Assembly (NCBI GenBank): GCA_963662715.1
Contig: OY759724.1
Span: 1,440,001 to 1,472,000, forward strand
Origin: Candidatus Omnitrophota bacterium
Lineage (GTDB): Bacteria; Omnitrophota; Gorgyraeia; Zapsychrales; JANLHA01
DNA: 32,000 nt
Reading direction: 5' to 3'
Shown: one piece after another, positions 2,479-28,136 of the stretch
How positions within the stretch are numbered: the stretch's first letter is position 1
Layout of the letters: each line of letters starts with the position of its first letter
Notes under the pieces: generated by a model
The model's input: only the letters and a program-made list of their open reading frames with translations
Told to the model about the DNA's origin: nothing
The model's database searches: none
Position numbers and translations under genes: made by a program

Positions 2479-2531
2479 CGCTGTTTTTCCGTGCTTTTTA
2501 AATGCGTGTTTGATTTTGTGTGCCCGCAAGG

Positions 2532-10053: not shown

Positions 10054-10443
10054 GTGGATTGTCCTGTGTGTCAGGAAGCGATGATTGTCTGCGAGCTGGA
10101 TCAGGTCGAAATTGACCATTGTGTGTCTTGTGGCGGAATTTGGCTGGATGCCGGGGAATTGGAGCTGCTGCTGGGAAGCGGCGCCGGACAGGAAGATGTT
10201 TTGCATGTTCTCTCTCCGGAAACGTCAGCGGAGGAAAGCCCGAGACCCTGCCCGATATGTTTGAAGCCCATGGAGAAAGTTTTGTGCGCCGGAAAAGACA
10301 AGAACATCCTGTTGGACCGCTGCCGGTTTAAAGACGGACTATGGTTTGATAAAGGAGAGCTGAAGGATGTCTTGGAAGCCGGAAACAAAGCCGTGAACAG
10401 TAAGATTCTGATGTTGTTGCAGGAAATATTCAGGGAGAGTTAA
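10054..10443 (+). CDS. double zinc-ribbon protein (zf-TFIIB-type, PF13453-like)
   Basis: The product is 129 aa with a GTG start 6 nt after AGGAGGA. Repeat 1 reads CPVC..x14..CVSCGGIWLDAGELELL. Repeat 2 reads CPIC...DRC..DGLWFDKGELKDVL and is partly degenerate. Confidence 0.8.
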   Translation: MDCPVCQEAMIVCELDQVEIDHCVSCGGIWLDAGELELLLGSGAGQEDVLHVLSPETSAEESPRPCPICLKPMEKVLCAGKDKNILLDRCRFKDGLWFDKGELKDVLEAGNKAVNSKILMLLQEIFRES

Positions 10444-10459: not shown

Positions 10460-11014
10460 ATGATGCTCGTTTTGCTTGTTTTTATCGGCGGTATGATCTT
10501 GATCATTATGTCTTTTGCCGGGACATATAATGCGCTTGTCCGCCTGAGAAATCAGGTTGATAACGCCTGGGCGCAAATCGACGTGCAGTTGAAAAGAAGG
10601 CATGACCTGATCCCGAATCTTATAGAGACGGCTAAAGGGTACATGACCCATGAACGGGAAACCTTGGAAGCTATTGTCGAGGCCAGAAGCAAGGCCATGG
10701 GGGCGCAGACCGTGGGAGAGAAATCGAAAACCGAAGGGTTTTTAAGTGAGGCCATGAGCAAATTTTTCCTGGTTGTGGAAAATTATCCGGATTTGAAGGC
10801 GAACCAGAACTTCCTTGCTTTGCAGGAGGAACTGACATCAACGGAAAACAAAATCGCTTTTGCCAGGCAGGCGTATAATGACCAGATATTGTCTTTTAAT
10901 AATAAAACAGAGATGTTCCCGTCCAATATTGTTGCCGGAATGTTTAATTTTACGAAAAGGGAATTTTTTGAAATAGAAGCGGAAGAACGGGAAGCGCCCA
11001 AAGTCCAGTTTTAG
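10460..11014 (+). CDS. lemA: LemA family membrane protein
   Basis: The product is 184 aa with SD AAGGAGGGG and an N-terminal TM helix. It carries the LemA signature YNALVRLRNQVDNAWAQIDVQLKRRHDLIPNLIETAKGY...ENYPDLKAN. Confidence 0.92.
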   Translation: MMLVLLVFIGGMILIIMSFAGTYNALVRLRNQVDNAWAQIDVQLKRRHDLIPNLIETAKGYMTHERETLEAIVEARSKAMGAQTVGEKSKTEGFLSEAMSKFFLVVENYPDLKANQNFLALQEELTSTENKIAFARQAYNDQILSFNNKTEMFPSNIVAGMFNFTKREFFEIEAEEREAPKVQF

Positions 11015-11025
11015 GTTTCTGCCTT

Positions 11026-12267
11026 ATGATGTGGGAGTTAATACAAGAAAATAAAAGAAAATCCTGGATGCTTTTTTTTGCTATGGGAGGGTGTCTGCTT
11101 GTCCTGGGGTATGTGATCGGTGCGGCGTGGATGCCTCATCAGGACGGGGGGATTTTGGGCGTTATGATCGCCGGCATGGTCTGGTTTTTCATGTCATTGG
11201 TCAGTTATTTTTCCGGAGATTCGATCCTCCTGTCTTTGAGCGGCGCCAAAGCCGTCAATCATGACGTCCATCCGCAGTTGTTTAACGTCGTTGAGGAGAT
11301 GAAGATCTCCGCCAACCTTCCCGTTATGCCGAAGATATACATTATCGACAGTCCGGCCGCGAATGCCTTTGCCACAGGGCGTAGCCCTGAACGGAGCGCT
11401 ATTGCTGTCACCGCCGGGTTGCTGGCGATGCTCAACCGGGACGAATTGCAGGGGGTTATCGCCCACGAAATGTCGCATATCTTAAACCGGGATGTGCTGT
11501 ATATGACATTTGCCGGCGTGCTCCTGGGCAGCATTGTTATGCTTTCGGAGATTTTCTTAAGAAGTCAGTATTATTCCTCGTCCCGCCGTTACCGGGGCTC
11601 TTCCCGGGATAACGGCCAGGGGCAGGCGGTGATCATGCTTATCGCTATCGTTTTTGCCGTCCTGGCCCCGATTTTAGCCCGGCTGTTCTACTTCTCTTTA
11701 TCAAGGCGCAGGGAGTATCTCGCCGATGCGTCTGCTGTGCGTTTGACGCGTTATCCGGAAGGCCTCGCCGCTGCTCTGGAGAAGATCTCTCAGCCGGATA
11801 TTCAACTGGCGAAAGTGAATAAAGTCACGGCTTCCATGTACATCATTAATCCTTTAAAATCTAAAAAGCAGCATCTGGCCCTTGCTTTCAGCACCCATCC
11901 CCCGATCAATGAACGTATAAAAATATTGCGGTCCATGACCCAGGGTGTTAATTACCGTCAATATGCCGAGGCTTTCTCAAAAATAAAAGGCCGGTCTTCT
12001 TTGATGCCGGCGTCGGCTTTGGAGGATTCGCAGGACGTCCCTCTTCGGAAGGCATCGGTCCAGCCGGATACGCGCACGGCGAAACAGAAGACAAGGGAGT
12101 GGGGGGATCTTGTAAGAGTTTTAAATAAGTTTATGTTTATCCCGTGCCCGTGCGGCTTAACGATAAAAATCCCCCCGGATTATAAACGCGATACGGTTGT
12201 TTGCCCCCGGTGTCGCCGAAGTCACGATCCCCGTAAGGCGGCGCATGCAGACCAGCACAAGACTTGA
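11026..12267 (+). CDS. M48 (HtpX-like) zinc metallopeptidase with a C-terminal zinc-ribbon extension
   Basis: The product is 413 aa with TM helices and an HEMSH zinc motif (VIAHEMSHILNRD). A downstream Glu block (RREYLADASAV) and THPPINERI are present. The extra C-terminal region of about 110 aa contains CPCG-x17-CPRC. Confidence 0.9.
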   Translation: MMWELIQENKRKSWMLFFAMGGCLLVLGYVIGAAWMPHQDGGILGVMIAGMVWFFMSLVSYFSGDSILLSLSGAKAVNHDVHPQLFNVVEEMKISANLPVMPKIYIIDSPAANAFATGRSPERSAIAVTAGLLAMLNRDELQGVIAHEMSHILNRDVLYMTFAGVLLGSIVMLSEIFLRSQYYSSSRRYRGSSRDNGQGQAVIMLIAIVFAVLAPILARLFYFSLSRRREYLADASAVRLTRYPEGLAAALEKISQPDIQLAKVNKVTASMYIINPLKSKKQHLALAFSTHPPINERIKILRSMTQGVNYRQYAEAFSKIKGRSSLMPASALEDSQDVPLRKASVQPDTRTAKQKTREWGDLVRVLNKFMFIPCPCGLTIKIPPDYKRDTVVCPRCRRSHDPRKAAHADQHKT

Positions 12268-14243: not shown

Positions 14244-14621
14244 ATGATGGGATATGCCGTTATGAAAATCGTCATCCTGTTCTTGACGGTCGCTGTCTTA
14301 ATCTTTCTCTGGGTCGTTTTGAGGGCCTTGAATAAAAAGAACCATGCTTTTAAAGATTATCGCGAGCTGGATGCCGGGCTGTCCTACCCTTGTCCGAAAT
14401 GCGGCCGGGTCATGGAAAACGGCTTCGTCACGGCAGGGAAAGGTATTATCTTCCGGGCGAGTCAGGAGAAGCCCGCAGGTCAAATACTGAACACGGATGC
14501 TTTATTGGACAACACTATAAATATGACCTTTTCCTCTAAAGAAAACCTGGCTTTCCGGTGCCGGGATTGTCAATATGTGCTTATCGACCACAGCTGCCTC
14601 GTTGGTAAAGTGACGCGTTAA
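14244..14621 (+). CDS. membrane-anchored zinc-ribbon protein
   Basis: The product is 125 aa with SD AAGGAG. The start is at 14244 or 14247, from tandem ATGs. An N-terminal TM helix is followed by CPKC...x58...CRDC, bracketing a small domain. Confidence 0.6.
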   Translation: MMGYAVMKIVILFLTVAVLIFLWVVLRALNKKNHAFKDYRELDAGLSYPCPKCGRVMENGFVTAGKGIIFRASQEKPAGQILNTDALLDNTINMTFSSKENLAFRCRDCQYVLIDHSCLVGKVTR

Positions 14622-14748
14622 AGCAAAGGTTAGATGACGTAAAACCATGAAGAAAAAAGAGCTTTGCCTTTGAAATAAAGGGCTTTTTTATCCGCCGGTT
14701 TTTTGCTATGATTTTTGGACAGCCTTTATCATTTTTGCGGAGGAGACC

Positions 14749-15576
14749 GTGACATCCAAATTGTCTAAACCGTTTTTTTTAACGTCCTATATAGCGGGGG
14801 GAGGGATAACCCATTTGCTGTCCTTTTTGATGTTGATTGCCAGCAAAAAAGATGTTGCTTTCGTCCTGCTGCTGATTTCTTTTGTCTTTTTGGTTTATTT
14901 AACGGTTGTCAGCTGTATTCTTTGGTCTAAGTCCTGGAGCTTCATCCAGGACGGCCATGCCCGGACAACACCAGGCAGGGCGATCGGCTTTATGTTTATT
15001 CCGTTCTTCAGTTTTTACTGGCTCTTTCAGCTGATTTACGGTTTTGCCAAGGACTTTAATGCTTATGTGGACCGCTATAATGCCCCGACAAAAAAACTGT
15101 CAGAGCCTCTTTTTTTGACGATCTGCATTATGCTGCTGGTCGGTGTTTTCATGAATCTGGTCCCGGGCATCGGCATTTTTTATTCTTTTGCCGTTTATAT
15201 TGTCATGATATTTCTTGTTGTTCAGCTGATCGATGCCGTGAACCAGCTTCCCGACCAGGCGGAACAATTTTCTTCTGATGTCCTTTTGCCGCAGGAAAAG
15301 GCTCCGGGGTGTTCGGACAATAAATTCGCCGGCGTCATTGCCATTCTTTTATCGGCCATTGCTCTTTTGCACGAAATGGTTTTCTTTACAGACATATTTC
15401 TGTCTCCCTTTGGCCGAATGATATTAGGAGTTTTGGCCTTATTGAACGGGGGCGTGGTTATATTTTTAGCGACCCGCTGCAGACATGCGGTATTAAAGGT
15501 TTTAGGAATCTGCGTTCCTGTTCTTGTGATTCTTGTTCACCTGCTGCGATGGATGACGAGACCTTTTCCTTTCTGA
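14749..15576 (+). CDS. polytopic membrane protein (unknown family)
   Basis: The product is 275 aa with a GTG start 4 nt after GGAGGAG. It has at least 6 hydrophobic segments and a conserved-looking loop, GRAIGFMFIPFFSFYWLFQLIYGF. Confidence 0.6.
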   Translation: MTSKLSKPFFLTSYIAGGGITHLLSFLMLIASKKDVAFVLLLISFVFLVYLTVVSCILWSKSWSFIQDGHARTTPGRAIGFMFIPFFSFYWLFQLIYGFAKDFNAYVDRYNAPTKKLSEPLFLTICIMLLVGVFMNLVPGIGIFYSFAVYIVMIFLVVQLIDAVNQLPDQAEQFSSDVLLPQEKAPGCSDNKFAGVIAILLSAIALLHEMVFFTDIFLSPFGRMILGVLALLNGGVVIFLATRCRHAVLKVLGICVPVLVILVHLLRWMTRPFPF

Positions 15577-15615
15577 ATCCCGTTTTGTCGGTAACTTTTT
15601 CCGTGTTATGAAATT

Positions 15616-16317
15616 ATGAAGGACGGTATTGCCCGAAGCCCGGTTTTGTTGTTTATCCTCATCCTTTTGGGCCTTTTTGCCTGGACAGGATATTATGGGG
15701 GATATGTCTATACTTTCACCGTCCCGTTGTTTTGGGTTCTTTTCATCAGGAAAAAGCCTGCGGAAATTTTAGGCCTTTCAAAAAATAACATTGTGCCTTC
15801 CGTTTTCACGGGCGGGATAACAGGGATCCTGCTTTCGGTCTTGGGAGGGCTGATCCTGAAATGGAGCGGGCATGAAAAGGTTCATCTGCCGACCATCCCG
15901 GAAACTTCTCCTCTGCCGGCATTGACAGCCAGTATGTTCACAAAATCGGCCGACGGGTATTTGTTGCTGAGAAGTTCTTCTTTCTGGGGCTGTGTCCTTT
16001 ATTTTTTTTATATCTTGCTGGCTGTGGGGCTGGGGGAGGAATTGTTCTGGCGGGGGTTTGTTCAGAATTATCTGATGTCCCGCAAGGGCCCTCCCTGGTT
16101 TGCCGTAAGCGCGACATCGGTTTTGTTCGTCTTGGTCCACATTTTTTTAATTTCCTTAATGCCGGTCAGGACTTTTTCTCTTTTTCTTGCGCTTATAGGC
16201 TGTGCGAGCATGCTCTGGGGCCTGATGTTTTACCGTTTTAAGAATCTTTGGGGCTGCGCCATCTCACATGGCATAACGGCATTCGTTGTTTGGCGGTGTT
16301 TTTTTTATTCGTTATAA
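15616..16317 (+). CDS. CPBP (CAAX) family intramembrane glutamic endopeptidase
   Basis: The product is 233 aa and polytopic. Motif 1 is EExxxR (GLGEELFWRGF), motif 2 is FxxxH (VLFVLVHIF) and motif 3 is HxxxN/D-like (ISHGITAF). Confidence 0.85.
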   Translation: MKDGIARSPVLLFILILLGLFAWTGYYGGYVYTFTVPLFWVLFIRKKPAEILGLSKNNIVPSVFTGGITGILLSVLGGLILKWSGHEKVHLPTIPETSPLPALTASMFTKSADGYLLLRSSSFWGCVLYFFYILLAVGLGEELFWRGFVQNYLMSRKGPPWFAVSATSVLFVLVHIFLISLMPVRTFSLFLALIGCASMLWGLMFYRFKNLWGCAISHGITAFVVWRCFFYSL

Positions 16318-16368
16318 GTTCGGTTTTCCGGGACAGACTCCCGTATACGAGATCAAGGAGGCGGTCTT

Positions 16369-18210
16369 GTGGCAGTAAATCTCAAAAGAATTTTCCGCCG
16401 GGTTTCCTATGGACATCATGCTTTTATTTTTTTTGTTCTTTTGGTCCTGTGCTTGACCGCCCTGTCGGTGTCCGGTGTTTTAAGGCTTGAATTTACGAAT
16501 CGGGATGACCCGGTCTATTTATTGGAGAACACATCTGTCCGCTCTTTTTCTTGGCCAAATCTTCGCAGGATTTTTTCTGAAACGATCTACAAAGCCTATT
16601 CGCCGTTGAGCACGTTGTCTTTCGCCGCCGAATATCATTTTTTTAAATACATCCCTTTTTATTATCATCTTGACAATTTGCTTTTGCACGTGGGCGTCAC
16701 CGCGTGGGTGATGCTTTTTGCGCGAACTTTAGGTGTGAGCCGACGGGCATCTCTGTTGGCCGGGCTTTTGTTCGGGATCCATCCATTGCATGTGGAGCCC
16801 GTGGCCTGGGTCGCCGCCCGAAAAAATGTTCTTTACGCCCTTTTTTATGTGCCGGCTCTCTGCGCCTACTCTGATTATCTTGCGGGCTTCGGACATCCGG
16901 AACGCCGGACAGCCCGCAGAAAAACAATGTATGCCTTAACGATATTCTTGGCATTGTTAAGCATTCTTGCCGAAGCGATGGCCTTGACGCTGCCGTTGGT
17001 TTTTTTGCTTTTGGACTGGTATCATCGACGTCCCTGGTCTAAAAGACTGCTGCTGGAGAAAATTCCCCATCTTTGTGTCGTGGCGCCCGTCGCGCTAATA
17101 ACATATTTTCCCCGGATTATGGATCCGGGCCGGTATTTTTCGGAAGCGATGCTGTTATTCTGGGCGGCGACATTTTATCTTAAAAAATTTTTATTCCCCT
17201 GGCCCTTGTTGCCGCATTATCCGGTTCCGGCCCCGATGCATTTTTTTCCCGGGGAATATTTGACGGCTACCCTTTTAGTCCTTGTTCTGGCTTATCTCCT
17301 GTGCCGGTTCCGTCGCAGGCGGTTGTTTGTTTTTGCTGTTTTGTTTTATGCGGCCACTGTTTTTTTTCTCCTGAAAGCTGATAATCGTGCGGATGCGGGC
17401 ATCGTTGCCGACAGATATATGTATATCCCCAGCGTAGGCTTTTGTTGTCTTGCGGCTGCCTGGTTTGATCAATTGTTGAACTCCCGTGGACGGCGCAGGC
17501 CGCTTGTGATTTGTTTCCTGATCATGATTTACTCATCCTTGGCCATGCAGACATATTTTCAGGTCCGGGTTTGGCGAAACAGCCTGACTCTTTGGAGCCA
17601 TGCCCTCCGTTTTTGGCCGGACAATGCCCTCTTTTGGCTTAATCGGGGAAGCGGTTTGTCGCAACAGGAGCGTTATCCGGAAGCATTGTCGGATTATCAG
17701 CATGCGTTATCCTTGAACCCTGAACTGGGCAAGGCCTATTATAATATGGCTTATATTTATTATCTCCAGGAGCAGGACATGGATGCTTTGGAGGTGCTCG
17801 AAAAAGAACTTAAGATCAATGACCGCGACATTGACGGTTATTTTTTAAAAGGGAATATTCTGCAGCGGAACAAGGCTTTGTTGGCCTCCATTGACACCTA
17901 TACTCATATTTTAACCATTGACCCGACGCATGTGCTGGCGTGGAACAACCGGGCTATCGCACATGCCAAACTCGGTCACGATCAACAGGCCTTGGAGGGG
18001 TTCACTCAGGCTTTGCGGCTGGATCCTATGTGCGGCGACTGTTATCTCAGCCGGGGCAATTTTTACCTGAACAAGAAAGAATATTATCTCGCGTTACAGA
18101 ATTATGATCAGGCCTTAAAAGTCAATCCGCAAGACGGCAGAGTATATTTTTTAAAAGCCGTTGTTTATAAGGAGATGAACCGCATGCGGAAAGCTGGCGG
18201 TAATTATTAG
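16369..18210 (+). CDS. GT-C fold (PMT/TMTC-like) membrane glycosyltransferase with C-terminal TPR repeats
   Basis: The product is 613 aa with a GTG start 7 nt after AAGGAGG. It has roughly 10 TM segments and an acidic first-loop motif (FTNRDDPVYLLEN). The C-terminal 200 aa or so are tandem TPR units (ALSDYQHALSLNPELGKAYYNMAYIY...). Confidence 0.8.
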   Translation: MAVNLKRIFRRVSYGHHAFIFFVLLVLCLTALSVSGVLRLEFTNRDDPVYLLENTSVRSFSWPNLRRIFSETIYKAYSPLSTLSFAAEYHFFKYIPFYYHLDNLLLHVGVTAWVMLFARTLGVSRRASLLAGLLFGIHPLHVEPVAWVAARKNVLYALFYVPALCAYSDYLAGFGHPERRTARRKTMYALTIFLALLSILAEAMALTLPLVFLLLDWYHRRPWSKRLLLEKIPHLCVVAPVALITYFPRIMDPGRYFSEAMLLFWAATFYLKKFLFPWPLLPHYPVPAPMHFFPGEYLTATLLVLVLAYLLCRFRRRRLFVFAVLFYAATVFFLLKADNRADAGIVADRYMYIPSVGFCCLAAAWFDQLLNSRGRRRPLVICFLIMIYSSLAMQTYFQVRVWRNSLTLWSHALRFWPDNALFWLNRGSGLSQQERYPEALSDYQHALSLNPELGKAYYNMAYIYYLQEQDMDALEVLEKELKINDRDIDGYFLKGNILQRNKALLASIDTYTHILTIDPTHVLAWNNRAIAHAKLGHDQQALEGFTQALRLDPMCGDCYLSRGNFYLNKKEYYLALQNYDQALKVNPQDGRVYFLKAVVYKEMNRMRKAGGNY

Positions 18211-18250: not shown

Positions 18251-18616
18251 TCAAAAAGGCCGTTTCTGCAAAAGGATTTTGCTGGCGATAAACCAAATGG
18301 TCAGGCCACTTAATAGTAAGATGGTCCAGAATTTAGCTGACTTGACAAAACGGAAGGAGCCGTAATCAGAGATAGGTTCCGGCTGCACTTCTCCCATCAA
18401 TTCTCCATATTGATAGTAATATTCTTCGATAACCTTGCCTGTTTTATCAAATATCTGTTCAATGCCGTGTTTTTTTCCTTTTTCATACGAGACTTTGGAC
18501 TTCAGTTCCCCGGTTTCATAATATGTCATGTGTTCCTTTGGGCTGGAATGGCTTTGACCATAGGAAGAACCCGGCCATAAGACCAGAAGAATCAACAAGA
18601 AAACAGTTTTTGTCAT
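18251..18616 (-). CDS. MORN-repeat-variant (YwqK-like) protein with a signal peptide and a C-terminal TM anchor
   Basis: The product is 121 aa from the ATG at 18616, with GGAGAA SD upstream on the minus strand. It has a signal peptide (MTKTVFLLILLVLWPGSSYG), MORN-variant units (YYETGELKSKVSYEKGKKHGIEQIFDKTGKV) and a C-terminal TM helix (FWTILLLSGLTIWFIA). Confidence 0.7.
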   Translation of the reverse strand: MTKTVFLLILLVLWPGSSYGQSHSSPKEHMTYYETGELKSKVSYEKGKKHGIEQIFDKTGKVIEEYYYQYGELMGEVQPEPISDYGSFRFVKSAKFWTILLLSGLTIWFIASKILLQKRPF

Positions 18617-18751
18617 ATGAGTCGTTCTCCTGTTTTTTTGTCCTTTCACGACGTTCCGCTGTCCTTTGTCCTTGGATTCCTGCGGATATGCTTAAGGGGA
18701 TGAACAACGTTTCCTGCGTGTAGCGAGAAGGCCCGGCATTCCGGGGGTGTT

Positions 18752-19279
18752 TTAAAACGCCCCCCAGTCCTGATCCCCCGGGATGTAATACGAGGGGCAG
18801 ATAAACCGGAAAAGCTGTGCGAACCTTCTTGCTTTTGCTGAATCGTTATCGCTTTGCGTTTTGATTTCTGCTAAGGATGAAGCCGCAACTTGCGAGAAAT
18901 ACTCTTCAGTCGCTTTGTTCCGGGCTTCTTCGTCAGGATACAGAGAGCGTATCTGGGCTAATTCGCCGACGTCAAGCCATATCCCTCCGCATTGAGCGCA
19001 TTCGTCCAGTTCAACGCTTTTTTGAATGCTGAAATAATGCTTCATCATAATGATGTCTTGGCACCGGGGGCATTTTCTCTTGGCAGAATAATCGACCTTG
19101 ATGCTGCCGTCCCGGGAAATGTTCAGCAATTGTTCTCCGGCATGTTCGTGCGGTTCATCAACTTTTTCCAGTTCGAAATTGTCAAACCACACCCCGCCGC
19201 AGCCGCCCTCACAGACATCCAGGGCCAAATCTCCAATTTTGATTTCTTTTAAATTGTTCTGACATGCGGGACAAATCAT
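18752..19279 (-). CDS. double zinc-ribbon protein (zf-TFIIB-type, PF13453-like), paralog of 10054..10443
   Basis: The product is 175 aa with SD AAAGGAG. It has two intact units, CPAC...CEGGCGGVWFDNFELEKV and CPRC...CAQCGGIWLDVGELAQI, plus a C-terminal extension of about 70 aa. Confidence 0.8.
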   Translation of the reverse strand: MICPACQNNLKEIKIGDLALDVCEGGCGGVWFDNFELEKVDEPHEHAGEQLLNISRDGSIKVDYSAKRKCPRCQDIIMMKHYFSIQKSVELDECAQCGGIWLDVGELAQIRSLYPDEEARNKATEEYFSQVAASSLAEIKTQSDNDSAKARRFAQLFRFICPSYYIPGDQDWGAF

Positions 19280-19431
19280 AATAAATCTCCTTTTAAGTGT
19301 TCACTCTAATATCTTAAATTATGATTACGGCCTTTATTATACACTACAAAAATTGTCTTTTATAGCGGGGATTTGAGTTTATTTAACAGAGAGCGTGCTT
19401 ATTAACTATAAGAATTTGTTGGGTTTTTGTT

Positions 19432-19459
19432 TTGATCGTGACGAATTCATAATATAATA
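19432..19459 (+). promoter_or_regulatory. putative sigma70-type promoter of the giant-gene operon
   Basis: A -35 TTGATC sits at 19432..19437, then a 16-nt spacer, then a perfect -10 TATAAT at 19454..19459. It lies in an AT-rich divergent intergenic region about 75 nt upstream of the ATG at 19535. Confidence 0.4.
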
Positions 19460-19534
19460 AAAAACACGCTACTACTAAATTTATAGATATATGTAAACCT
19501 TCTGTTATCCAGACTTAAAGAAAGGCTAAGTATT

Positions 19535-22500
19535 ATGAAAAGATATTCTAAGAATATTACATGGATATTTTCGTTCAGCTTGGTTTTTGTCTTGTTCTTC
19601 TCCGGGGCCCCGGAAGCCAAAACCAACGGCGCGAGCTTAACCCAAAAAGTCGAGACTCTTTTAAGAAAATATGAGGATCTTCGGGAACAGAATAAAAGCC
19701 TGAAAGAAGATCTGGAGCGGGCCAATGAATTGGCGACGAAATATAAAGGTAAACTCATTGATGCGGAAGACTCTCTTCTGGAATTGCAGAGACAGATGCA
19801 AAACCAGAGCGAGGAGACAAAAGGGGGGCAGGATGCCCGGCAGGAAAAGTTGAAGAAGGAGCTGGATCAGGTCCGTCAGGAAGCCGGGGAATATGAAAAA
19901 CAGCTTTCCGAGAAAAAATCCCTCCTGAAAGACTTGCAGGCGAAAATTCAGAAACAGGCGGAACAGCTTGAAGGGGCCCGGACTGAATTGGAAGAGCAGA
20001 AAAAACAATTGAGCCAAAAGAAATCCGGAGCGGAAGACCTGGAGCAGGTCATTGCCAAATTGCGGGATGAGAATCAAAGACTCAAGGAGGATATTGAGGA
20101 AAGCCGAAAGACCATGAGAGACATCAAGACGTCTTTCAAAGAGGATGAGTCGTCTTTAAAGGAATCTTTGGAGAAAGAATTGCGTGAGCTTAAACAGGAA
20201 GTGCAGATTAGAGGGGCCTTTGTCAGAGACGGGGAGGAACAGATTGAATCTTTAAAGGCTGAAAAAACGCAATTGATGGAAAACATAAAAACGCTGGAAG
20301 AAAAAGTCGATGATTTGTCGGGTCGCAGGGACCGAAAAGAGGAGTCCGTAGCCAGAAAAATTGAAAAAGTCCGGCAGCCTTTGGAGGAGAAAATAAATGA
20401 GCTGCAAACGCAGCTGGAGGATTTGAAAAAAACGGAGCCGCAAAAAATTGAGGAAGCACAAAAGCCTTTGAATGAAAAGATAAAAGCTCTTACAAATGAA
20501 AATGTTTCTTTGCGAAAATCCGTGAAGGATGAAGTCCGGGCCGCCCGGGAGCCTTTAGAGGAAGATATTAAAGAGTTGCGGGGCCAGCTTAAAGAGGCGC
20601 AGGAACAAATGAAAGAGCAGGCTTTGCAGAGCGATAAAGCGGATGCCGAACAGGTTCAGGAATGGCAGGAAAAGCTGCGGGCAGCGGAAGAGTCCGGAGA
20701 AGAAAAAGAGCAGGAGGCCCGGATTTTAAAAGAGCAAGTGGATCAGGTGAAAAAACAACTGGCGGGTTTGGAAGAAGAGAATCAGACGTTGAGGGAAGAG
20801 TCTGAGTCGTTCAAGAAAGACCTGAAGAAGGAAAGGGAGTTGGCGGAAAAAGATCTGGAAGCGACGAAGTCTTCCTTGCAGGAGAAAATTGACGATCTGC
20901 AGCAGGAATTGAAGACTTCCGGGAAGAAGAAAACAGAGAAGCTTTTGAGACAGCAGGAAGACCTTGAGCGGGAGAAACTTGCTTTAGAAGAACAGATTCA
21001 AACAATAGAAAAAGCTGTCCCGGGGAAAATAGAAGAGGCTAAACAGCCTTTACAGGAGAAGATTGATTCTTTACAGGAAGCCTTAAAGGAAGCGCGCCGT
21101 TCCAAGGATGAAAAAGCAGCTCAGAAGGAAGAATCTTTGCGGGATGAGATATCCGAGTTAAGGGAACAGTTGAAACAGGCCAATAAAATCACGGCAGAAA
21201 AAGTTGAGGCGGCAAAGGCTTTATTACTGGATCAAGTTGCTGCTTTAGAACAGCAGTTGGAGGATCAGAAAGCCAGGCTTCCCGAGAAAATAGAGGAAGC
21301 CAAGCGCGAAGAGCAGGAAGAAATCGTGATGTTGGAAGCCCGCATTCGAGAAAAGGAACAGGAATTGTCCGCGCAGGAAGAAGCTATAAAGAATAAGTAT
21401 GAAAAGAAGTTTAAGTCCCAAGAGAAAGAGTTGAATCAGCTGAAAGTGAACGTCACGGAAGAGCAGGCTGAAAAGAGGAAAGCGGAGGTGGAGATTGAAC
21501 GATTGAGCCGGGAACTTAAAAGCCTTCAGAAGAGCGAAAATTCTCATCAGAAGGAACTGGCTTCTTTACAGGACCGGTTGAAAAGGCAGGACGCCCGGTC
21601 TGATCAGCTCGTCGAAGACAAGACAGCGAATTACCGGGTCCGTATTTCTGACCTGGAAGAGGAATTAAAGAAGGTTCGGGAGTCCGCTCAGCTGCAGGTC
21701 GATGAAGCTACGCAGGTTAAAGAAAATGAAATTGAGAAGTTGACCCGGAAAATTGAAAGCATTGAAAGCTCTATCCCGGAGAAGATCGCAAGAGCCAAAC
21801 AGCCTTTGGAAGAAGAAATTAAAGAGCTTAATAAAAAAATCAGACTTGATAAGAATTCCAAAAAGGAAGACCTTCAGAAGGCTCAGGAACCGCTGGAAGA
21901 AAAAATAAAAGATTTAGAAACCCGGATTGAAGAACAAGAGGCAGAATGGCAAGCCCGGGTCGAAGGCGCTAAAGAGCCGCTCTTGGAGCAGGTACGGGAT
22001 CTGGAGGCCAGGCTGAAGGAGAAGGACAGCGAGGTTGCCGGCCGGGTTGATAAAGCCCGGGAGCCGCTTCTGGAACAGGTGCGGGATTTGGAGGCCAGGC
22101 TGAAGGAGAAGGACAGTGAGGTTGCCGGCCGGGTCGATAAAGTCCAAGAGCCGCTTCTGGAACAGGTACGGGATCTGGAGGCCAGGCTGAAGGAGAAGGA
22201 CAGTGAGGTTGCCGGCCGGATCGATAAAGCCCGGGAACCGCTTTTGGAGAAGGTTCAGGATCTGGAGGCCAGGCTGAAGGAGAAGGACAGTGAGGTTGCC
22301 GGCCGGATCGATAAAGCCCGGGAACCGCTTTTGGAGAAGGTTCAGGATCTGGAGGCCAGGCTGAAGGAGAAGGACAGCGAGGTTGCCGGCCGGATCGAGT
22401 CTGTTAAAACGCCTCTGGAAGACAAGATTGCGGCTTTGAAAGAAGAATTGAAAAGTGTGCGGCAAGAAGGAGAAGACCGTTTAAAGGAAGACCAAAAAGA

Positions 22501-25500
22501 TAAAAAAGAAGAAATAGAAAAGGTAAGGCAGGAGTTTAAAGAGTATAAGAACAGGGTGTCGGAAAAAATCAGCAAAGCCAAGGAACCGCTGGAAGAGAAA
22601 ATTTTGCAGCTGGAGGACCGGCTTAAAGAGCAAAAAGAAGAAGGAGCCCGGCAGGTCGAAGAAGCTCAGGCCGTGTTAAGACAGGAGATAGGAAAGCTGG
22701 AAGCTGAGCTGAAGGAAAAGGATGCCGGTTTGACAGTCGGTCTTGAGGAAGCGAAAGAACCTTTGGTCGGACAGATTCAGGCCCTTGAGGAGAAATTGAA
22801 AGAAAAAGATACCGTCATGGCTCAAAGAATTGAGGAGGAGAAAGCCGCTTTTCAGGAAAAAATTGCCGTTCTGCAGGAAGAGTTAAGAACGGCGCGGGCG
22901 GAGGCAGAGGTCCGTTTGAAGGAGGAACAGGGGAAGAGCGCGGCGGAGATTGAAAAGGTTCAGCAGGAATTAAGAGAATATAAAGATAAAGTCTCGGAAA
23001 AGATTGCCAGAGCCAAGGAGCCTTTGCAGGACAAAATAGAAAAATTGAAAGAAGATCTTAAGGAAGCTAAAAGCAGACGCAGTACAGCTTTGCAGGATGC
23101 TCAGGCTCCTTTGGAGGAAAAAATCAGGGACTTGGAAGAGCAGCTGAAAGAGCAGGAAAAAAAGTGGGCGGAGAAAGCGGAAGAAGCCAGGCAGCCGCTT
23201 GTCGAACAGGTGCAGGTTCTTGAAGAAAAAATAAAAGAGAAAGAATCCGGAATCGAACAGCAGATTGAGGATGCTAAAGTTCCTTTATATGATGAGCTTG
23301 CCGCGGTTAAAGAAGAGCTGCAGACGGTACGGGCAGACCACGAAGAGCGTTTGAAAGAGGCCGCGCAGGAAAAATCAGAGGAGTTGAGAAAATTGCAGGA
23401 AGAGCTGGACGGGTATAAGAATAGCGTTGCAGACAAGATCGCGGAGGCTAAAAAACCTCTGGAAGAGAGAATTGCCGAATTAGAGCAGGATTTTAAGACG
23501 GCACAGGAAAAACATGAGGGTGTTTTACAGGAAGCCCAAAAACCCTGGGAGGAGAAAGTGCTGAACTTGGAGTCCCGGATAAAAGAACGGGATGAAGAGT
23601 GGGAGGAAAAAGTGGCCGAGTCCCAGGAGGCGTTGTTAAAACAGATAAAGTCATTGGAAACAGATTTAAGACTGAAGGGATCGAAGATTGCCGAGAAGAT
23701 AAAACTTGCCAAGGCACCTTTGGAAGAGGAAATCCTGTCATTGGAACAGGCCCTGAAAGATAAAGATAAGGAATTAGAAAAGAAGATTGAGGAGGCGAAA
23801 TTCCCTCTCGAGATTAAGATCAGGGGGCTGGTGCAGAAACTGGATGATTTTGAGGCCAGCATCCCGGGCGTGGTGCGGAAATCCCGGAGACCGTTGGAGG
23901 CCAAAATTGTTGACATGAAAGAGGAAATGGAAACCCTCCAAAATTCTATTCAGGAGAAAATCGCGGAGGCCAAAGTTCCTTTGGAGAAAGATAATGCGCA
24001 ATTGCGGGACAAAGTGCAGGAAATCCAGTTATCCGTTGCGGAAAAGGTCGCCAAAGCTAAAGAGTCCTTGGAGGATGATAATCAGCGTCTTAAGCAGGAG
24101 CTTCAGGAGCAGGAACAATCCATGGCCGAGAAGATTGCTTCGGCCAGACAGCCTTTGGAAGAGAAGATTTCCGCTCAACAGGAGGAAATGAAGGAACTCA
24201 AGAATTCTATCTCAACAAGAATTGAGGAAGCAAAAACCTCCCTGCAGGAGAAGATTGATTATTTGCTGGAAAAGATGAAGACGGATGAAACTTCCTTTAA
24301 AGAAGAGTTGAAAGCCGCTCAGGAGGCGACCCGGCAAGGCAAGGAGGACGTTCGCGGGCCTTTGGAAAATGAAATCCAACAATTGAAGTCGGAAATAAAA
24401 GAGTCAGGGGTGTTGATTAAAGAACAGGAGAAAACGATTAAGCAGATAACGAAAGAGAAGGACGATCTGCTGAGAGAACTTAATATCGCTGAGGATAAGC
24501 AGAATAAAATGAATGAGCTTGTTGACCGGTCCAAGGAAGAACAGCGGCAGTTACAGGCGGATATTCCTGAAAAAGTTCAGGAAGCCAAGGAGCCTCTTTT
24601 GGAAAAAATCCGGCAGCTGGAGGTTAAGATCGATGAGATAAACAGGGAGACAGCGGCGAAGATCGAGCAGGCAAAACAGCCTTTGCAGGAGCGTGTCGAG
24701 GACCTGAGCGCAAAACTTAAAGAAAAAGACGCGGCTTTGAGCCAGGAAATCTCCAAGGCGAAAGCCCCGTTGGAGAATAAGATCGAAACAGTGAAACAGG
24801 AGATCATAGAGAAGGATCGAAATATTCAAAGCCATCTTAAAGAGAAAGACAATCTCAATAAAGAGCTCGTTGCCGCATTGAAAGAGAATACGTCCTTGAA
24901 TGATTCTGTTATGACTCTTAAGAGAGAACTGCAGGCAGCGCAGGATAAGCTGCAGACGGATGTTTCAGAAACCCGCAGGGGATATGAACAGAAGATCGCG
25001 GATTTGGAGAGCCGTTTGAAAAAAGCCGAAGGCTCGCTCCCGGATCAGATCAATGCCGTAAAAGTTCCCTTGATTGATAAAATTGCCACGCTGGAAGAGA
25101 CCCTGAAAGAGAGGGACGCTAAGGAAGCCCAGCGCATCTCTGAGGTGCGGACGCCTTTAGAAGGGAAAATTCAAAATCTTCAGCAGCAGCTGCAGGAGCG
25201 GGATGCTTCCTTGTCGCAGAAAGTTCAGGAAGCCAAAGCCCCGTTGGAAGCAGAAATTCAGTCTTTAAAAACACAGTTGCAAAGTCACCAGCAGTCTTTG
25301 CCCGAACAGATTCAGGATGTCAGGCGTCCTTTGGAAGAGGAAATCTCTTCATTGAAAACGCTTTTGCGTGAAAACGAAAAGTTTATGTCGCAGCAGGAAT
25401 CTAAAATACAGGATAAGAGTCAGTCCTTGAGCCGGGCTCAAGAGGAGTTGACGAATTTGCAGAAGATGTTGGAGGAGACAAAAACCAAAAAAGATTCGGC

Positions 25501-26455
25501 GGAAAAAGCATTATCAGAAAAAGACAGGACCCTTCCACAGATGATCAAAGAAGCCAAGCAGCCGCTGGAAGAGGAAATAAAAATGTTAAAGCAGCAGTTG
25601 AAGTCTAAGGAGAAAGATTTGCCTCAGCAGATGGCGGAAGTCCGCAGGCCTTTGGAACAAGAGATAAAAGATCTGAAGAAGGAATTGAAAGAGGCTGAAA
25701 GTTCTCTCCCTGGGCAAATGGCGGAAGCGAAAGCCCCTCTCGAGGAGAATATCCGGTCATTGGAAAAAGAGCTTAAACAGGTCCAGGGGGCATTGCCGGA
25801 ACAATTGGCGAAGGCCAAAGAACCGCTTGACCGGGAAATAGCTCAATTGAAACAACAGCTTAAAGATGCGGATAAGGCGGTTAAAATTAAAATTGCGGAA
25901 GCTCGGAAACCACTGGATATCAGGATCAAGGCCTTGGAGGAGGAGCTGAAATCCGTTCAGAAGGATACGAATCAGCAGTTGAACGAGGAAAGAAATCAGC
26001 ATGAGAAAGCCTTAGGCGAAGTTCAGCAGCAGATAAAATCTTTTGAGGACACCGTGCAGAAGAAAGATGCTGAAATGCAGAATTTGTCTAAAGAAGTCGA
26101 TCGCCTGACGATCAGCCTTTCGGCGATGCAGCAGGAGAATATCTTTCTGAATAATGAATTGGATTCATCCAAGAAGTCCATGCAGACGGTTAAAGACGAA
26201 TTGACCCAGAAGAATTCAAAGAAAATAACCGAGCTGGAGGAGAAGGTCCGCTTTTTGATGGAGCTTTTGGATCAGAAAGAAGCTCTTGTCCAGGAGAAGA
26301 CTAAGATATTGCAGGAGAGAGATCAGCAAATTTCAGCGTTGACTCAGGAAGCGGATGAGTTGGCCAAAGATTATTTTTCAATACTTGATAAAAATGTGGC
26401 TTTAAGCGAGAAGGTGGAAAAATTAGAGAAGCAGCTTTCGGGGGCGGCTCGTTAG
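19535..26455 (+). CDS. exported giant (2306 aa) proline-punctuated helical-repeat protein built of 29-residue units
   Basis: The reading frame is uninterrupted for 6.9 kb. A Sec-type signal peptide (MKRYSKNITWIFSFSLVFVLFFSGAPEA) leads into E/K/L/Q-rich, Cys-free sequence. I count about 40 copies of x-P-L-x-E-x-I-x-x-L spaced exactly 29 aa apart. All other ORFs in this span are shadows of the repeat. Confidence 0.9.
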   Translation: MKRYSKNITWIFSFSLVFVLFFSGAPEAKTNGASLTQKVETLLRKYEDLREQNKSLKEDLERANELATKYKGKLIDAEDSLLELQRQMQNQSEETKGGQDARQEKLKKELDQVRQEAGEYEKQLSEKKSLLKDLQAKIQKQAEQLEGARTELEEQKKQLSQKKSGAEDLEQVIAKLRDENQRLKEDIEESRKTMRDIKTSFKEDESSLKESLEKELRELKQEVQIRGAFVRDGEEQIESLKAEKTQLMENIKTLEEKVDDLSGRRDRKEESVARKIEKVRQPLEEKINELQTQLEDLKKTEPQKIEEAQKPLNEKIKALTNENVSLRKSVKDEVRAAREPLEEDIKELRGQLKEAQEQMKEQALQSDKADAEQVQEWQEKLRAAEESGEEKEQEARILKEQVDQVKKQLAGLEEENQTLREESESFKKDLKKERELAEKDLEATKSSLQEKIDDLQQELKTSGKKKTEKLLRQQEDLEREKLALEEQIQTIEKAVPGKIEEAKQPLQEKIDSLQEALKEARRSKDEKAAQKEESLRDEISELREQLKQANKITAEKVEAAKALLLDQVAALEQQLEDQKARLPEKIEEAKREEQEEIVMLEARIREKEQELSAQEEAIKNKYEKKFKSQEKELNQLKVNVTEEQAEKRKAEVEIERLSRELKSLQKSENSHQKELASLQDRLKRQDARSDQLVEDKTANYRVRISDLEEELKKVRESAQLQVDEATQVKENEIEKLTRKIESIESSIPEKIARAKQPLEEEIKELNKKIRLDKNSKKEDLQKAQEPLEEKIKDLETRIEEQEAEWQARVEGAKEPLLEQVRDLEARLKEKDSEVAGRVDKAREPLLEQVRDLEARLKEKDSEVAGRVDKVQEPLLEQVRDLEARLKEKDSEVAGRIDKAREPLLEKVQDLEARLKEKDSEVAGRIDKAREPLLEKVQDLEARLKEKDSEVAGRIESVKTPLEDKIAALKEELKSVRQEGEDRLKEDQKDKKEEIEKVRQEFKEYKNRVSEKISKAKEPLEEKILQLEDRLKEQKEEGARQVEEAQAVLRQEIGKLEAELKEKDAGLTVGLEEAKEPLVGQIQALEEKLKEKDTVMAQRIEEEKAAFQEKIAVLQEELRTARAEAEVRLKEEQGKSAAEIEKVQQELREYKDKVSEKIARAKEPLQDKIEKLKEDLKEAKSRRSTALQDAQAPLEEKIRDLEEQLKEQEKKWAEKAEEARQPLVEQVQVLEEKIKEKESGIEQQIEDAKVPLYDELAAVKEELQTVRADHEERLKEAAQEKSEELRKLQEELDGYKNSVADKIAEAKKPLEERIAELEQDFKTAQEKHEGVLQEAQKPWEEKVLNLESRIKERDEEWEEKVAESQEALLKQIKSLETDLRLKGSKIAEKIKLAKAPLEEEILSLEQALKDKDKELEKKIEEAKFPLEIKIRGLVQKLDDFEASIPGVVRKSRRPLEAKIVDMKEEMETLQNSIQEKIAEAKVPLEKDNAQLRDKVQEIQLSVAEKVAKAKESLEDDNQRLKQELQEQEQSMAEKIASARQPLEEKISAQQEEMKELKNSISTRIEEAKTSLQEKIDYLLEKMKTDETSFKEELKAAQEATRQGKEDVRGPLENEIQQLKSEIKESGVLIKEQEKTIKQITKEKDDLLRELNIAEDKQNKMNELVDRSKEEQRQLQADIPEKVQEAKEPLLEKIRQLEVKIDEINRETAAKIEQAKQPLQERVEDLSAKLKEKDAALSQEISKAKAPLENKIETVKQEIIEKDRNIQSHLKEKDNLNKELVAALKENTSLNDSVMTLKRELQAAQDKLQTDVSETRRGYEQKIADLESRLKKAEGSLPDQINAVKVPLIDKIATLEETLKERDAKEAQRISEVRTPLEGKIQNLQQQLQERDASLSQKVQEAKAPLEAEIQSLKTQLQSHQQSLPEQIQDVRRPLEEEISSLKTLLRENEKFMSQQESKIQDKSQSLSRAQEELTNLQKMLEETKTKKDSAEKALSEKDRTLPQMIKEAKQPLEEEIKMLKQQLKSKEKDLPQQMAEVRRPLEQEIKDLKKELKEAESSLPGQMAEAKAPLEENIRSLEKELKQVQGALPEQLAKAKEPLDREIAQLKQQLKDADKAVKIKIAEARKPLDIRIKALEEELKSVQKDTNQQLNEERNQHEKALGEVQQQIKSFEDTVQKKDAEMQNLSKEVDRLTISLSAMQQENIFLNNELDSSKKSMQTVKDELTQKNSKKITELEEKVRFLMELLDQKEALVQEKTKILQERDQQISALTQEADELAKDYFSILDKNVALSEKVEKLEKQLSGAAR
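21974..22408 (+). repeat. 5 x 87-bp near-identical in-frame tandem repeat (unit EPLLEQVRDLEARLKEKDSEVAGRVDKAR)
   Basis: Copies start at 21974, 22061, 22148, 22235 and 22322. Copies 1 and 2 differ at about 10 of 87 nt. Copies 4 and 5 are identical over the first ~77 nt apart from one synonymous C/T, and copy 5 diverges only at its 3' end. Confidence 0.95.
22394..23698 (+). repeat. 3 x 435-nt (145-aa = 5 x 29) second-order super-repeat, diverged, no indels
   Basis: Units span aa 954..1098, 1099..1243 and 1244..1388. All three align column for column, for example IExxKxPL..., E.RLKE..., EYK..VS/AEKI..AKEPL and AQ.P.EEK. A partial fourth copy (unit positions 59..145) precedes them from aa 751. 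Confidence 0.85.
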
Positions 26456-26488
26456 CGCTTCCTTTTTTGGGAAGTGAATCTTTAAAGA

Positions 26489-27679
26489 ATGATGTCTCAT
26501 AGATTATTTGCAAAAAAAATAAAGATATTCCTGTTTTTTTTCTTGGGAGTTCTTTTCTTTGAAAAGACCATTCTCCTGTCTCAGGTCTATGGAGAAGAAA
26601 AAGCCTCCCTGCCGCTGGATTCCCGTCATCAAGTCATACAAGATGCTTTGGATTATCAGGAGGAGCTGGACGATATCGTTCAGCATAAAAGAGCAGAAAC
26701 GCCACCTCCGCCTTTTGATCCTCGTGCCGTGATCTCAGAAGATGACCTCCTGCCTGACCGCCTGCCGCAATTCCTTCCGGATGAATTTAGTGCGAACCCC
26801 AGGACGGTTCTGGACCGGGATGAAGTTGTCCGGGAAGCTTTGAATGAAGTAGAAATCGGCCTCGAAACATATGCCATCAGCTACCGAGAGCCGGGGCTCA
26901 TGAAGGATCAGGGGATTCTGAGCGGTTTGTACGGCTCCTATACTTACCGTACCAGGGACAATCAGCAGATTCAGAGTTTTAAAGATGCCTGGAGAGACCG
27001 CTTCAAAATTAACAAATTTATGGCGGAAGGGCGTTTGGCTCGGGGAAAAGTGGATTATGAATCAGACGACAGCGGGACGCTTGACGGGCTGCCGTATTAT
27101 ACCTTTGAACTGCGCGGTCTTTTGGCGTATGAAATGCCCATGATCCCTTCCGGGTGCATCACGCCTTATTTTGGTGTCGGTTTTAGATATTTGAAGGATG
27201 ACAGCGGCGGGAAAACGACAACAACCGGACATTGGTCTTATGACCGGGAGTCCCGATATATTTATATCCCTATCGGTTTAGAGATCACAAAGCAGTTGAA
27301 GAACAAATGGTCTGTCGGGTTGACCTGCGAATATGACATCTTCCTGTTCGGGAAGCAAAAGAGCCATTTGGAAGACGGCGGGGCGTGGATTCTTGATGAC
27401 GGACAGTATTATGCTTTGGATACTTTGGAAAACGACCAGGAAGAAGGGTTTGGTTTAAGGGGGTCTCTAAAAATTATGCGGCAGCATGAAAAATGGGATT
27501 TTGTTTTTGAACCTTTCGTAAGATATTGGAGTTTAAAGGATTCTTTATTAGCACAATGGACTTCTTTGAGCGGCAGTGTCTTGTGGTATTCTGACCCGGC
27601 TTACCGGTATCCCATTTATGGATATGAACCGGAGAACCATACAACGGAGTATGGCTTTCGTCTGGGCGTGAATTATTAA
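26489..27679 (+). CDS. predicted outer-membrane beta-barrel protein with a Pro/acid-rich N-terminal linker
   Basis: The product is 396 aa and starts 33 nt after the giant-gene stop. It has a signal peptide (IKIFLFFFLGVLFFEKTILLSQVYG). An acidic, proline-rich region (ETPPPPFDPRAVISEDDLLPDRLPQFLPDEF) is followed by about 270 aa with alternating-hydrophobic strands, ending in an aromatic residue (YGFRLGVNY). Confidence 0.6.
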   Translation: MMSHRLFAKKIKIFLFFFLGVLFFEKTILLSQVYGEEKASLPLDSRHQVIQDALDYQEELDDIVQHKRAETPPPPFDPRAVISEDDLLPDRLPQFLPDEFSANPRTVLDRDEVVREALNEVEIGLETYAISYREPGLMKDQGILSGLYGSYTYRTRDNQQIQSFKDAWRDRFKINKFMAEGRLARGKVDYESDDSGTLDGLPYYTFELRGLLAYEMPMIPSGCITPYFGVGFRYLKDDSGGKTTTTGHWSYDRESRYIYIPIGLEITKQLKNKWSVGLTCEYDIFLFGKQKSHLEDGGAWILDDGQYYALDTLENDQEEGFGLRGSLKIMRQHEKWDFVFEPFVRYWSLKDSLLAQWTSLSGSVLWYSDPAYRYPIYGYEPENHTTEYGFRLGVNY

Positions 27680-28076
27680 AAAGAGGCGAATATCCGGACG
27701 TGTTGTTGCCGGCAAAACAAGCCCTTCTGAATTTTTCAAAAGCCGTTCGGTTAAACTCCAGAATAATACAGCTATCGAGAATATTGTTCCGTTATTGTCC
27801 CTGAATTTTGGGGACGCGGAAATTCAGGCCTTATGTCACGATGTCAAAACAGGGCTTGTTCCTCTTCGATGTTCGGGATTCCGGCAAAGTATCGCTCAGA
27901 AAGACTTTGTTCCGTCTGAATATTTGTCTTTCGCTTGTTTCAAAATAACATTTAAGATACAATAAGCAACTGAAAGTTGTTTTATAAAGCCTTTCAGCCT
28001 TCTCTAAGAATAATCCGTTCAGTTAAGCGACGGCGCGCCGCCCGGGGGTGTTTTCGCGATTTGGAATTGTGTCTGG

Positions 28077-28096
28077 GAGTGTTAAGTGTCTTTTTG
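28077..28096 (+). repeat. copy B of the shared GTGTC-repeat motif (GAGTGTTAAGTGTCTTTTTG)
   Basis: The motif lies 40 nt upstream of the ATG at 28137. Its wider context is GTGTCtgggaGTGTTaaGTGTCttttt, which matches copy A at 8685..8706. Confidence 0.5.
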
Positions 28097-28136
28097 CGGC
28101 ATATTATTTGTAAAGACTTCTTGAAAAAGATAAACT

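Follow-up and report, generated by a model that had tools for sequence, protein, structure and literature searches.

In Thermotoga, the gene for Omp-alpha, a coiled-coil rod that spans the periplasm, lies directly upstream of that for the Omp-beta barrel, and in Vibrio cholerae the protein CrvA is rich in coiled coil. The CrvAB complex is described in its source as periplasmic and polymer-forming (PMC11369160), and a 29-residue 'four heptads plus a skip residue' design has been described for SF-assemblin (PMC2119799). In type V secretion (types Va and Vb), a gene for a large exported protein adjoins one for an outer-membrane barrel. We have analysed a 32,000-nucleotide (nt) stretch of contig OY759724.1 from a Candidatus Omnitrophota bacterium (the window, whose positions serve as coordinates throughout), in which a gene for an exported repeat protein of 2306 amino acids (aa), here called the giant, is likewise followed by a gene for a predicted outer-membrane beta-barrel and is preceded, on the other strand, by genes for a zinc-ribbon and a MORN-variant protein. 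In our best explanation, to which we give a probability of roughly 0.55, these are four real genes that form no dedicated four-gene machine, and the giant is a segmented, nearly unsupercoiled coiled coil of the SF-assemblin type that is made independently of the barrel as an exported structural fibre of the envelope. The genes, given as open reading frames (ORFs), and the spacer are as follows.

18251..18649, minus strand: gene for the MORN-variant protein, an ORF of 132 aa and the second gene of the minus-strand pair
18752..19279, minus strand: gene for the zinc-ribbon protein, an ORF of 175 aa, cytoplasmic
19280..19534, no strand: divergent AT-rich intergenic region of 255 nt
19535..26455, plus strand: gene for the giant, an ORF of 2306 aa
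26489..27679, plus strand: gene for the barrel protein, an ORF of 396 aa

All four ORFs had been called in a first-pass annotation of this DNA, and we find each of them, with exact coordinates. The ORF coordinates also agree with the 33-nt gap claimed between the giant and barrel genes, and the spacer is AT-rich as had been said, with a GC content of 27.8% compared with 46.1% for the window; a GC content this low or lower occurs in just 0.09% of the window's 255-nt stretches. The giant itself is made up of the following elements.

19535..19618, plus strand: Sec-type signal peptide of about 28 aa, MKRYSKNITWIFSFSLVFVLFFSGAPEA
20357..25966, plus strand: rod region, aa 275-2144, in which about 45 copies of a 29-residue repeat score well with a hidden Markov model (HMM) of the unit
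21974..22398, plus strand: tandem amplification within the gene, 4.9 copies of an 87-bp unit at 93% identity (Tandem Repeats Finder)
25970..26452, plus strand: conserved C-terminal domain, the last 161 aa, where conservation is highest

That the giant is an exported repeat protein, as had been proposed, is borne out both by the N-terminal signal peptide, which is conserved across orthologues, and by the 29-residue repeats. The orthologues came from a search with the conserved last 161 aa and from scanning metagenomes with a degenerate pattern, and their signal peptides display n, h and c regions with cleaner AXA-type sites (...VTGAGA/KD and ...HPLFA/DD, the slash marking the cleavage point); the cleavage position in the giant is a prediction. 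Beyond the signal peptide, the giant consists almost wholly of alpha-helical repeat. In the rod, the repeats are broken up by less regular coiled-coil stretches and follow the consensus xKIxEAKxPLEEKIxxLExxLKEKDxxxx. The identity autocorrelation at a lag of 29 residues is 0.245 compared with a background of 0.099 +/- 0.027, i.e. more than 5 standard deviations above it, with harmonics at 58, 87 and 116. The eight core positions of each 29-residue segment (3, 6, 10, 14, 17, 21, 24 and 28) are spaced 3-4-4-3-4-3-4-4, which corresponds to one heptad and two hendecads and to 3.625 residues per turn, and the hydrophobic power of the protein peaks at 3.62 residues, i.e. 29/8. Strongly hydrophobic residues make up about 24% of the giant and form a narrow a/d-like stripe of eight positions per 29. 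In addition, the pair Pro9-Leu10 is invariant in 38 repeat copies, and Pro-Leu pairs are spaced 29, 58 or 87 residues apart along the protein. Fully extended, at about 0.15 nm per residue, the roughly 2,280 residues of the mature giant would reach approximately 0.3 micrometres.

These features place the giant closest to SF-assemblin and beta-giardin (PF06705), which are likewise rods of 29-residue segments forming a segmented coiled coil, the giant having a period of 29 with 3.62 residues per core position. Against PF06705 the window giant scores 17.1 bits, below the cut-off of 30.6, whereas its orthologue in locus L032 reaches 37.1 bits over 229 residues in one stretch. SF-assemblin is a cytoplasmic, microtubule-associated eukaryotic protein of about 280 residues; the giant, in contrast, is bacterial, has 2,306 residues and a signal peptide, and carries an invariant proline in each segment. 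We therefore regard the giant as working like the SF-assemblin family, with membership not established by a score below the Pfam cut-off, and the resemblance may be convergent. CrvA and CrvB are exported and have been proposed as structural elements of the envelope outside the cytoplasm, a role that the giant would share; its sequence has the signal peptide and coiled-coil rod that a CrvA-like filament would have. CrvA, however, is a much smaller protein and is not known to contain an array of 29-residue repeats. As we see it, the giant would be exported by Sec and, once out of the cytoplasm, would assemble into oligomers that form a structural envelope fibre, lying in the periplasm as a 'periskeletal' element or on the surface. 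Whereas the analysis shows the gene structures, the repeats, the signal peptides, the fold of the barrel and the synteny, the giant's location, oligomeric state and structural role are our inferences.

The giant also gave generic coiled-coil matches, to Apolipoprotein, SMC/Rad50, intermediate-filament and Baculo_PEP_C families, all but Baculo_PEP_C under their curated cut-offs. We reject them as compositional, as the repeat period does not fit any of them. The apolipoprotein match bears on a different view of the giant, namely that it is an amphipathic-helix lipid binder which coats or stabilizes a membrane leaflet or shuttles lipid across the periplasm. Helices punctuated by prolines would suit such a protein, and PF01442 (Apolipoprotein A1/A4/E) gives 76.4 bits with the window giant and 81.1 with the L032 orthologue, while the giant of locus L034 has a weak ApoLp-III match. 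However, the PF01442 scores lie under the curated cut-off of 90, the period is 29 rather than 11 or 22, and the narrow a/d-like hydrophobic stripe is typical of coiled coils and not of a broad lipid-binding face, so that we hold a lipid binder to be the least probable of the readings weighed here.

To place the family, we searched 1.84 billion representative proteins with residues 749-1502 of the giant using HMMER and obtained only 119 proteins at E <= 1e-3, i.e. few proline-punctuated 29-mer relatives. Among the ten best matches checked, three carry a name, and all three are Omnitrophota hypothetical proteins. The small number of relatives and the Omnitrophota-only names indicate that the giant family is narrow and uncharacterized, and from these sequences it appears to be restricted to Omnitrophota. 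Identity is 64% over aa 2201-2300 compared with 19-53% elsewhere, and the C-terminal domain contains the invariant motifs QQENIFLN and LT.EAD.LA.DYF.ILDKNV; searched against Pfam and the PDB, this domain gave generic coiled-coil matches only. The giants differ in length by lineage, with 2224-2346 aa compared with 1604 aa for the complete L032 protein. The 87-bp unit of the tandem amplification is exactly one 29-residue repeat (protein copies GRVDKAREPLLEQVRDLEARLKEKDSEVA), and the 93% identity of these in-frame units points to a recent expansion of the repeat.

Such recent in-frame amplification and lineage differences in length are typical of surface proteins, and the giant could accordingly be pictured as a surface fibril, coat or adhesin (compare M-protein or the stalk of a trimeric autotransporter) that is released by an unlinked secretion system and to which its gene neighbours are irrelevant. 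An exported, very long and highly charged rod with no membrane anchor would fit this picture: neither sequence inspection nor Pfam revealed a lipobox, a C-terminal beta-signal, an S-layer homology (SLH) domain, a two-partner secretion (TPS) domain (PF05860) or another anchoring domain in the giant. On the other side, the Sec signal peptide is the only secretion signal that we recognized in the protein, no secretion-system gene lies near it in the window, and its conserved C-terminal domain and fixed place among envelope-biogenesis genes are more in keeping with a structural housekeeping role; the envelope and housekeeping genes downstream of it are those for UppP, a BamE-like lipoprotein, TrmB, a DD-carboxypeptidase and DsbA. 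We thus consider a surface fibril of this kind unlikely, and place it second among the alternatives to a structural fibre of the envelope.

The relation between the giant and the barrel was assessed by comparing the loci of both families. The giant gene is directly followed by the barrel gene throughout one sub-clade, which comprises the window, loci L026, L001-L005, L013, L025 and L027-L029, and the sister lineage L035. In L001-L005, L013 and L025-L029 the barrel is 62-69% identical to that of the window and the gene order is giant, barrel, deaminase, p202, BamE-like, TrmB. In L035 the barrel is 48% and TrmB 49% identical, and UppP lies on the opposite strand after the four-gene set. The window, L026 and L035 carry the complete set of four genes in identical order. 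Loci L028 and L029 derive from activated sludge. In contrast, six more distant giants (L024 and L030-L034) that carry the giant's C-terminal motifs and 29-mer repeats, with the BamE-like and TrmB genes downstream where the contig reaches that far, occupy the same chromosomal position with no barrel in the locus. Their gene orders are as follows.

L024: giant, UppP (minus strand), BamE-like, TrmB
L030: giant, UppP, deaminase, BamE-like, TrmB
L031: giant, UppP (minus strand)
L032: complete giant of 1604 aa, UppP, BamE-like, TrmB, with an unrelated 448-aa gene, not MORN, upstream
L033: giant, deaminase, p202
L034: giant, deaminase, p202, with the giant and deaminase genes overlapping by 4 nt

In neighbour-joining trees of TrmB and of the BamE-like protein, L035 branches as the sister of the window clade, with the barrel-less loci outside. 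Conversely, none of the 19 other loci of the barrel family (L006-L012, L014-L022 and L036-L040) has a giant. Eight of these 19 show instead a deaminase paralogue, one or more barrels, often in tandem, and then Tex and dnaX, in some cases with recR, an arrangement that is the dominant home of the barrel family. The neighbourhood of these eight (L014, L016, L017, L020, L036, L037, L038 and L040), which is conserved widely in Omnitrophota, contains, in order, genes for an M16 peptidase, a T2SSE ATPase and a PAS histidine kinase (not in all of them), a cytidine-deaminase-family gene, one or two tandem barrels, Tex, dnaX and recR. We also considered whether the barrel travels with the deaminase and rejected this, the deaminase of the Tex context being just 38-45% identical to that of the window and probably a paralogue. 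In L006, a TPS-domain protein (1975-4818 of that locus) is encoded 4.5 kb upstream of the barrel.

The first-pass annotation had proposed that the four genes form one envelope system. What stands of this is the adjacency of giant and barrel throughout the sub-clade, together with the complete set in the window, L026 and L035. The six distant giants with no barrel, the 19 barrel loci with no giant and the absence of the zinc-ribbon gene from L001-L005 and L013 show, however, that the four genes are not a conserved module. The linkage of giant and barrel is no stronger than background synteny, and their adjacency lasts no longer than the housekeeping synteny that surrounds it. Nor is the tight spacing evidence of shared function, as the L034 giant gene overlaps by 4 nt with an unrelated deaminase gene; tight coupling to whatever gene follows is a general property of the giant gene.

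The barrel protein was modelled with AlphaFold2 (AF2) on a 120-sequence alignment, giving a mean predicted local distance difference test score (pLDDT) of 87.5, and has two parts.

26489..26842, plus strand: signal peptide and N-terminal extension, aa 1-118, with a helix at 43-70 and then a Pro-rich linker of low confidence (AF2)
26843..27679, plus strand: ten-stranded outer-membrane beta-barrel, aa 119-396, AF2 pLDDT > 90

The confident barrel model, with ten long transmembrane strands, and the C-terminal aromatic residue (the protein ends in ...GVNY) uphold the earlier prediction of an outer-membrane beta-barrel. In Foldseek comparisons, with template modelling (TM) scores normalized to the target, the model was closest to OpcA (E 8e-11 to 3e-10, TM 0.64-0.79), followed by OmpT and Pla (E 6e-07 to 1e-06, TM ~0.6), whereas the autotransporter beta-domains of NalP, EspP and BrkA gave TM values of 0.35-0.43. 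Identity to OpcA and the omptins is 8-15% (omptins 8-10%). The ten-stranded barrel fold is thus common to the window barrel, the Neisseria adhesin OpcA, OmpT and Pla; unlike these, the window barrel family has an N-terminal extension of about 85 residues and motifs of its own (YDRES, SHLEDGG, LENDQ and EPFVRYW). On the modelled structure we regard the barrel as OpcA/omptin-like in fold only, and assign it to no known functional family.

The window barrel has no Pfam match, PF03797 being absent even at E <= 1, and a search of PDB sequences with the barrel profile gave nothing significant (1k24 at E 0.47). Exact look-ups of the window barrel and of P0001 returned no record. Among 30 homologues, however, 19 match PF03797 weakly (best E 5.8e-08), 12 match PF13505 and two match PF07239 (OpcA) marginally (best E 0.022), with no omptin match among the families listed for them. 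The earlier statement that no component of a type V secretion system is present consequently holds for the window barrel itself but is less clear for its family, some members of which NCBI names 'autotransporter domain-containing', a label that stems from the weak PF03797 matches. We reject an autotransporter identity, as the barrel has ten strands and not 12 and the structural ranking favours OpcA and the omptins; on the models, the label is likely to be a mis-annotation that reflects generic barrel resemblance. Type Va autotransporters have 12 strands, a linker helix through the pore and a fused passenger, whereas the window barrel has ten strands, no fused passenger and an N-terminal extension of only about 85 residues, and its helix at aa 43-70 is set apart from the barrel by a linker of low-to-moderate confidence in the AF2 model. 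Type Vb (TPS) barrels have 16 strands and POTRA domains, whereas the window barrel has ten strands and no POTRA domain, and the giant has no TPS domain.

The barrel family comprises 188 homologues at E <= 1e-3, those with names being nearly all from Candidatus Omnitrophota, and the barrel loci, which were located in species-representative genomes with a 9-sequence alignment, are from Omnitrophota metagenome-assembled genomes as well. Several motifs are near-invariant in the family, i.e. Y-x-EP, VDYES, DDSGG...W-YDRES, Q-SHLEDGG, LENDQ, EPFVRYW and EP-N-T-EYG. According to the topology of the model they map mostly to the outer halves of the strands and to the long loops, and acidic residues, Ser and His are conserved close to where the strands are predicted to end on the extracellular side. 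Among the conserved residues are E134, D237, R253-S255, S292-H293-E295, N315-Q317 and E380-N383. Conservation in these places is unusual for an outer-membrane protein and points to a putative binding or catalytic site; the model suggests that the family may have an omptin-like catalytic or ligand-binding mouth.

Several observations weigh against the reading of the giant as a fibre made independently of the barrel, and most of them speak for a barrel that serves as the giant's outer-membrane anchor or export partner, for instance through its N-terminal helix and the C-terminal coiled coil of the giant, with the MORN and zinc-ribbon proteins as accessory or regulatory elements. Within the sub-clade, L035 with its 48% barrel identity included, the pair is never separated, and it lies on the same strand at a spacing of 22-36 nt in every member, with no terminator-like site between the two genes and with all four genes kept in the window, L026 and L035. 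The absence of the barrel in L024 and L030-L034 refers to the giant locus. The predicted periplasmic N-terminal helix and linker of the barrel could bind a partner, and two barrel paralogues follow large exported proteins: in L007 (160-5531 of that locus) the paralogue lies directly downstream of a 1362-aa protein with a signal peptide and no Pfam match, and in L015 (1-4396 of that locus) directly downstream of an S8 subtilase with DUF4215 repeats. These cases hint at a partner role for the barrel family, and within the sub-clade a lineage-specific functional link between giant and barrel may exist. Two further points concern the giant itself. Its AF2 model (aa 1300-1560, mean pLDDT 80.6), in which two long helices run through the prolines and are broken only at SIPG, is that of a monomer built from a pseudo-alignment of the giant's own repeats, and the giant may lie either in the periplasm or on the surface.

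Against an anchor or export partner stand the six more distant giants with no adjacent barrel, the 19 other barrel loci with no giant and the dominant Tex-dnaX-recR context of the family. In addition, the N-terminal extension, which varies across the family, also occurs in homologues that have no nearby giant; one of these, P0012, aligns to 96% of the barrel query, extension included, and lies in a Tex context. The OpcA/omptin-like fold has no known role in translocation, a linker helix filling the pore and a POTRA domain are both absent from the model, close relatives do without the zinc-ribbon gene, and two directly adjacent large upstream genes among 19 loci are too few for a pattern and not clearly above chance. 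Thermotoga Omp-alpha, the precedent for a rod encoded next to a barrel, has about 400 residues and an SLH domain, whereas the giant has no SLH domain and its pairing with the barrel is confined to one sub-clade. On balance we find an anchoring or exporting barrel unlikely, the first in rank of the alternatives to an independently made fibre. A bolder combination, in which the ten-stranded barrel was recruited as an outer-membrane dock for a coiled-coil fibre of ~0.3 micrometres and the giant is a bacterial extracytoplasmic counterpart of the eukaryotic striated-fibre proteins, is speculative and ranks, in our estimate, below the surface fibril and above the lipid binder. If it were true, the dock would constitute a new route of tethering or display outside the type V, TPS, SLH and lipoprotein solutions.

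With regard to expression, the spacer between the two pairs of genes contains one conserved block.

19443..19463, no strand: conserved block, GAATTCATAATATAATAAAAA, with TATAAT about 80 nt upstream of the ATG of the giant

The window, L026 and L004 share the TATAAT block, which is not conserved in L005 or L013. A generic sigma-70 promoter scan gave one weak site in the spacer and fewer sites overall than shuffled sequence, so that the scan is uninformative. In contrast, the terminator scan found no terminator-like site between giant and barrel, which makes co-transcription plausible, and within the sub-clade the barrel is probably co-transcribed with the giant. The two genes share a reading frame, with a stop codon and 11 codons between them, a second stop among these; the barrel's own signal peptide and the different frames in L004 make a read-through fusion unlikely. 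The coding strand of the giant gene is purine-rich (AT skew ~0.35, GC skew 0.2-0.36), as expected for a protein rich in Glu, Lys and Gln. Between the barrel and the deaminase gene lies a gap of 457 nt (27680-28136) with no plus-strand ORF of at least 100 aa; Rfam and tRNA scans of the whole window, this gap included, gave no matches. In relatives the gap measures about 230-260 nt, and in L025 it holds a called ORF of 56 aa.

For the minus-strand pair, the 175-aa protein had been described as a double zinc ribbon, and this is confirmed by two PF13453 (Zn_ribbon_TFIIB) stretches at E 2e-25 (88.4 bits against a cut-off of 22) and by the Cys pairs of CxxC...CxxC ribbons in its sequence. The 132-aa protein had been called an exported, transmembrane-anchored MORN variant. 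Its sequence does have a signal-like segment at the N-terminus and a hydrophobic one at the C-terminus, but against PF07661 (MORN_2) it scores 29.2 bits, just below the cut-off of 29.6, and the precomputed MORN matches in orthologues are faint. Close relatives keep the MORN gene divergent from the giant in every locus where the upstream side is visible (orthologues in L001/2, L004, L005, L013, L026 and L035), whereas the zinc-ribbon gene has orthologues in the same place only in L026 (78% identity) and L035 (56%); the L001-L005 and L013 lineages lack it. Both genes of the pair are accessory neighbours within the one sub-clade.

A second TFIIB-type zinc-ribbon protein of 129 aa is encoded at 10054-10443, immediately upstream of a 184-aa ORF (10460-11014), which is followed at 11026-12267 by a 413-aa ORF with an HEMSH zinc-protease motif; the L001 counterparts of the ORFs at 10460-12267 are annotated LemA and Peptidase_M48. 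The gene for the zinc-ribbon protein next to the giant thus has a paralogue, within the window, in a different conserved context, that of a membrane protease. Upstream of the MORN gene, the interval 14244-18210 between it and an SMI1/KNR4 gene holds four genes in a variable insertion zone. Their products are a 125-aa DUF6487 protein, an Rce1-like CPBP protease and two membrane proteins, one of 275 aa and the other of 613 aa with TPR repeats at its C-terminus. L001 and L002 have no counterparts of these four and carry a single gene of 111-120 aa instead, and L026 has the Rce1-like gene only.

As a history of the locus we propose that the giant gene would be an independent unit with its own promoter region, and that a single event in the ancestor of the sub-clade would have put the barrel between the giant and the deaminase, and the MORN and zinc-ribbon genes before the giant, the zinc-ribbon gene having been lost afterwards in some lineages. 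The barrel is a lineage-specific neighbour drawn from a general Omnitrophota family of ten-stranded outer-membrane proteins, and the four-gene arrangement is lineage-specific at best. This is a reason for caution, since tight spacing and a shared divergent spacer marked no conserved functional module here.

The Omnitrophota are widespread and mostly uncultured, and their cell envelope is almost unstudied. Their abundant 'autotransporter domain' proteins model as ten-stranded OpcA/omptin-like barrels with a conserved polar mouth. The giant, a variant of the coiled-coil structural proteins, is the most interesting element of the region: a conserved, Sec-exported and segmented coiled coil of about 2,300 residues would rank among the longest extracytoplasmic rods described in bacteria, and it is a concrete candidate for an envelope skeleton or surface fibre of the Omnitrophota.

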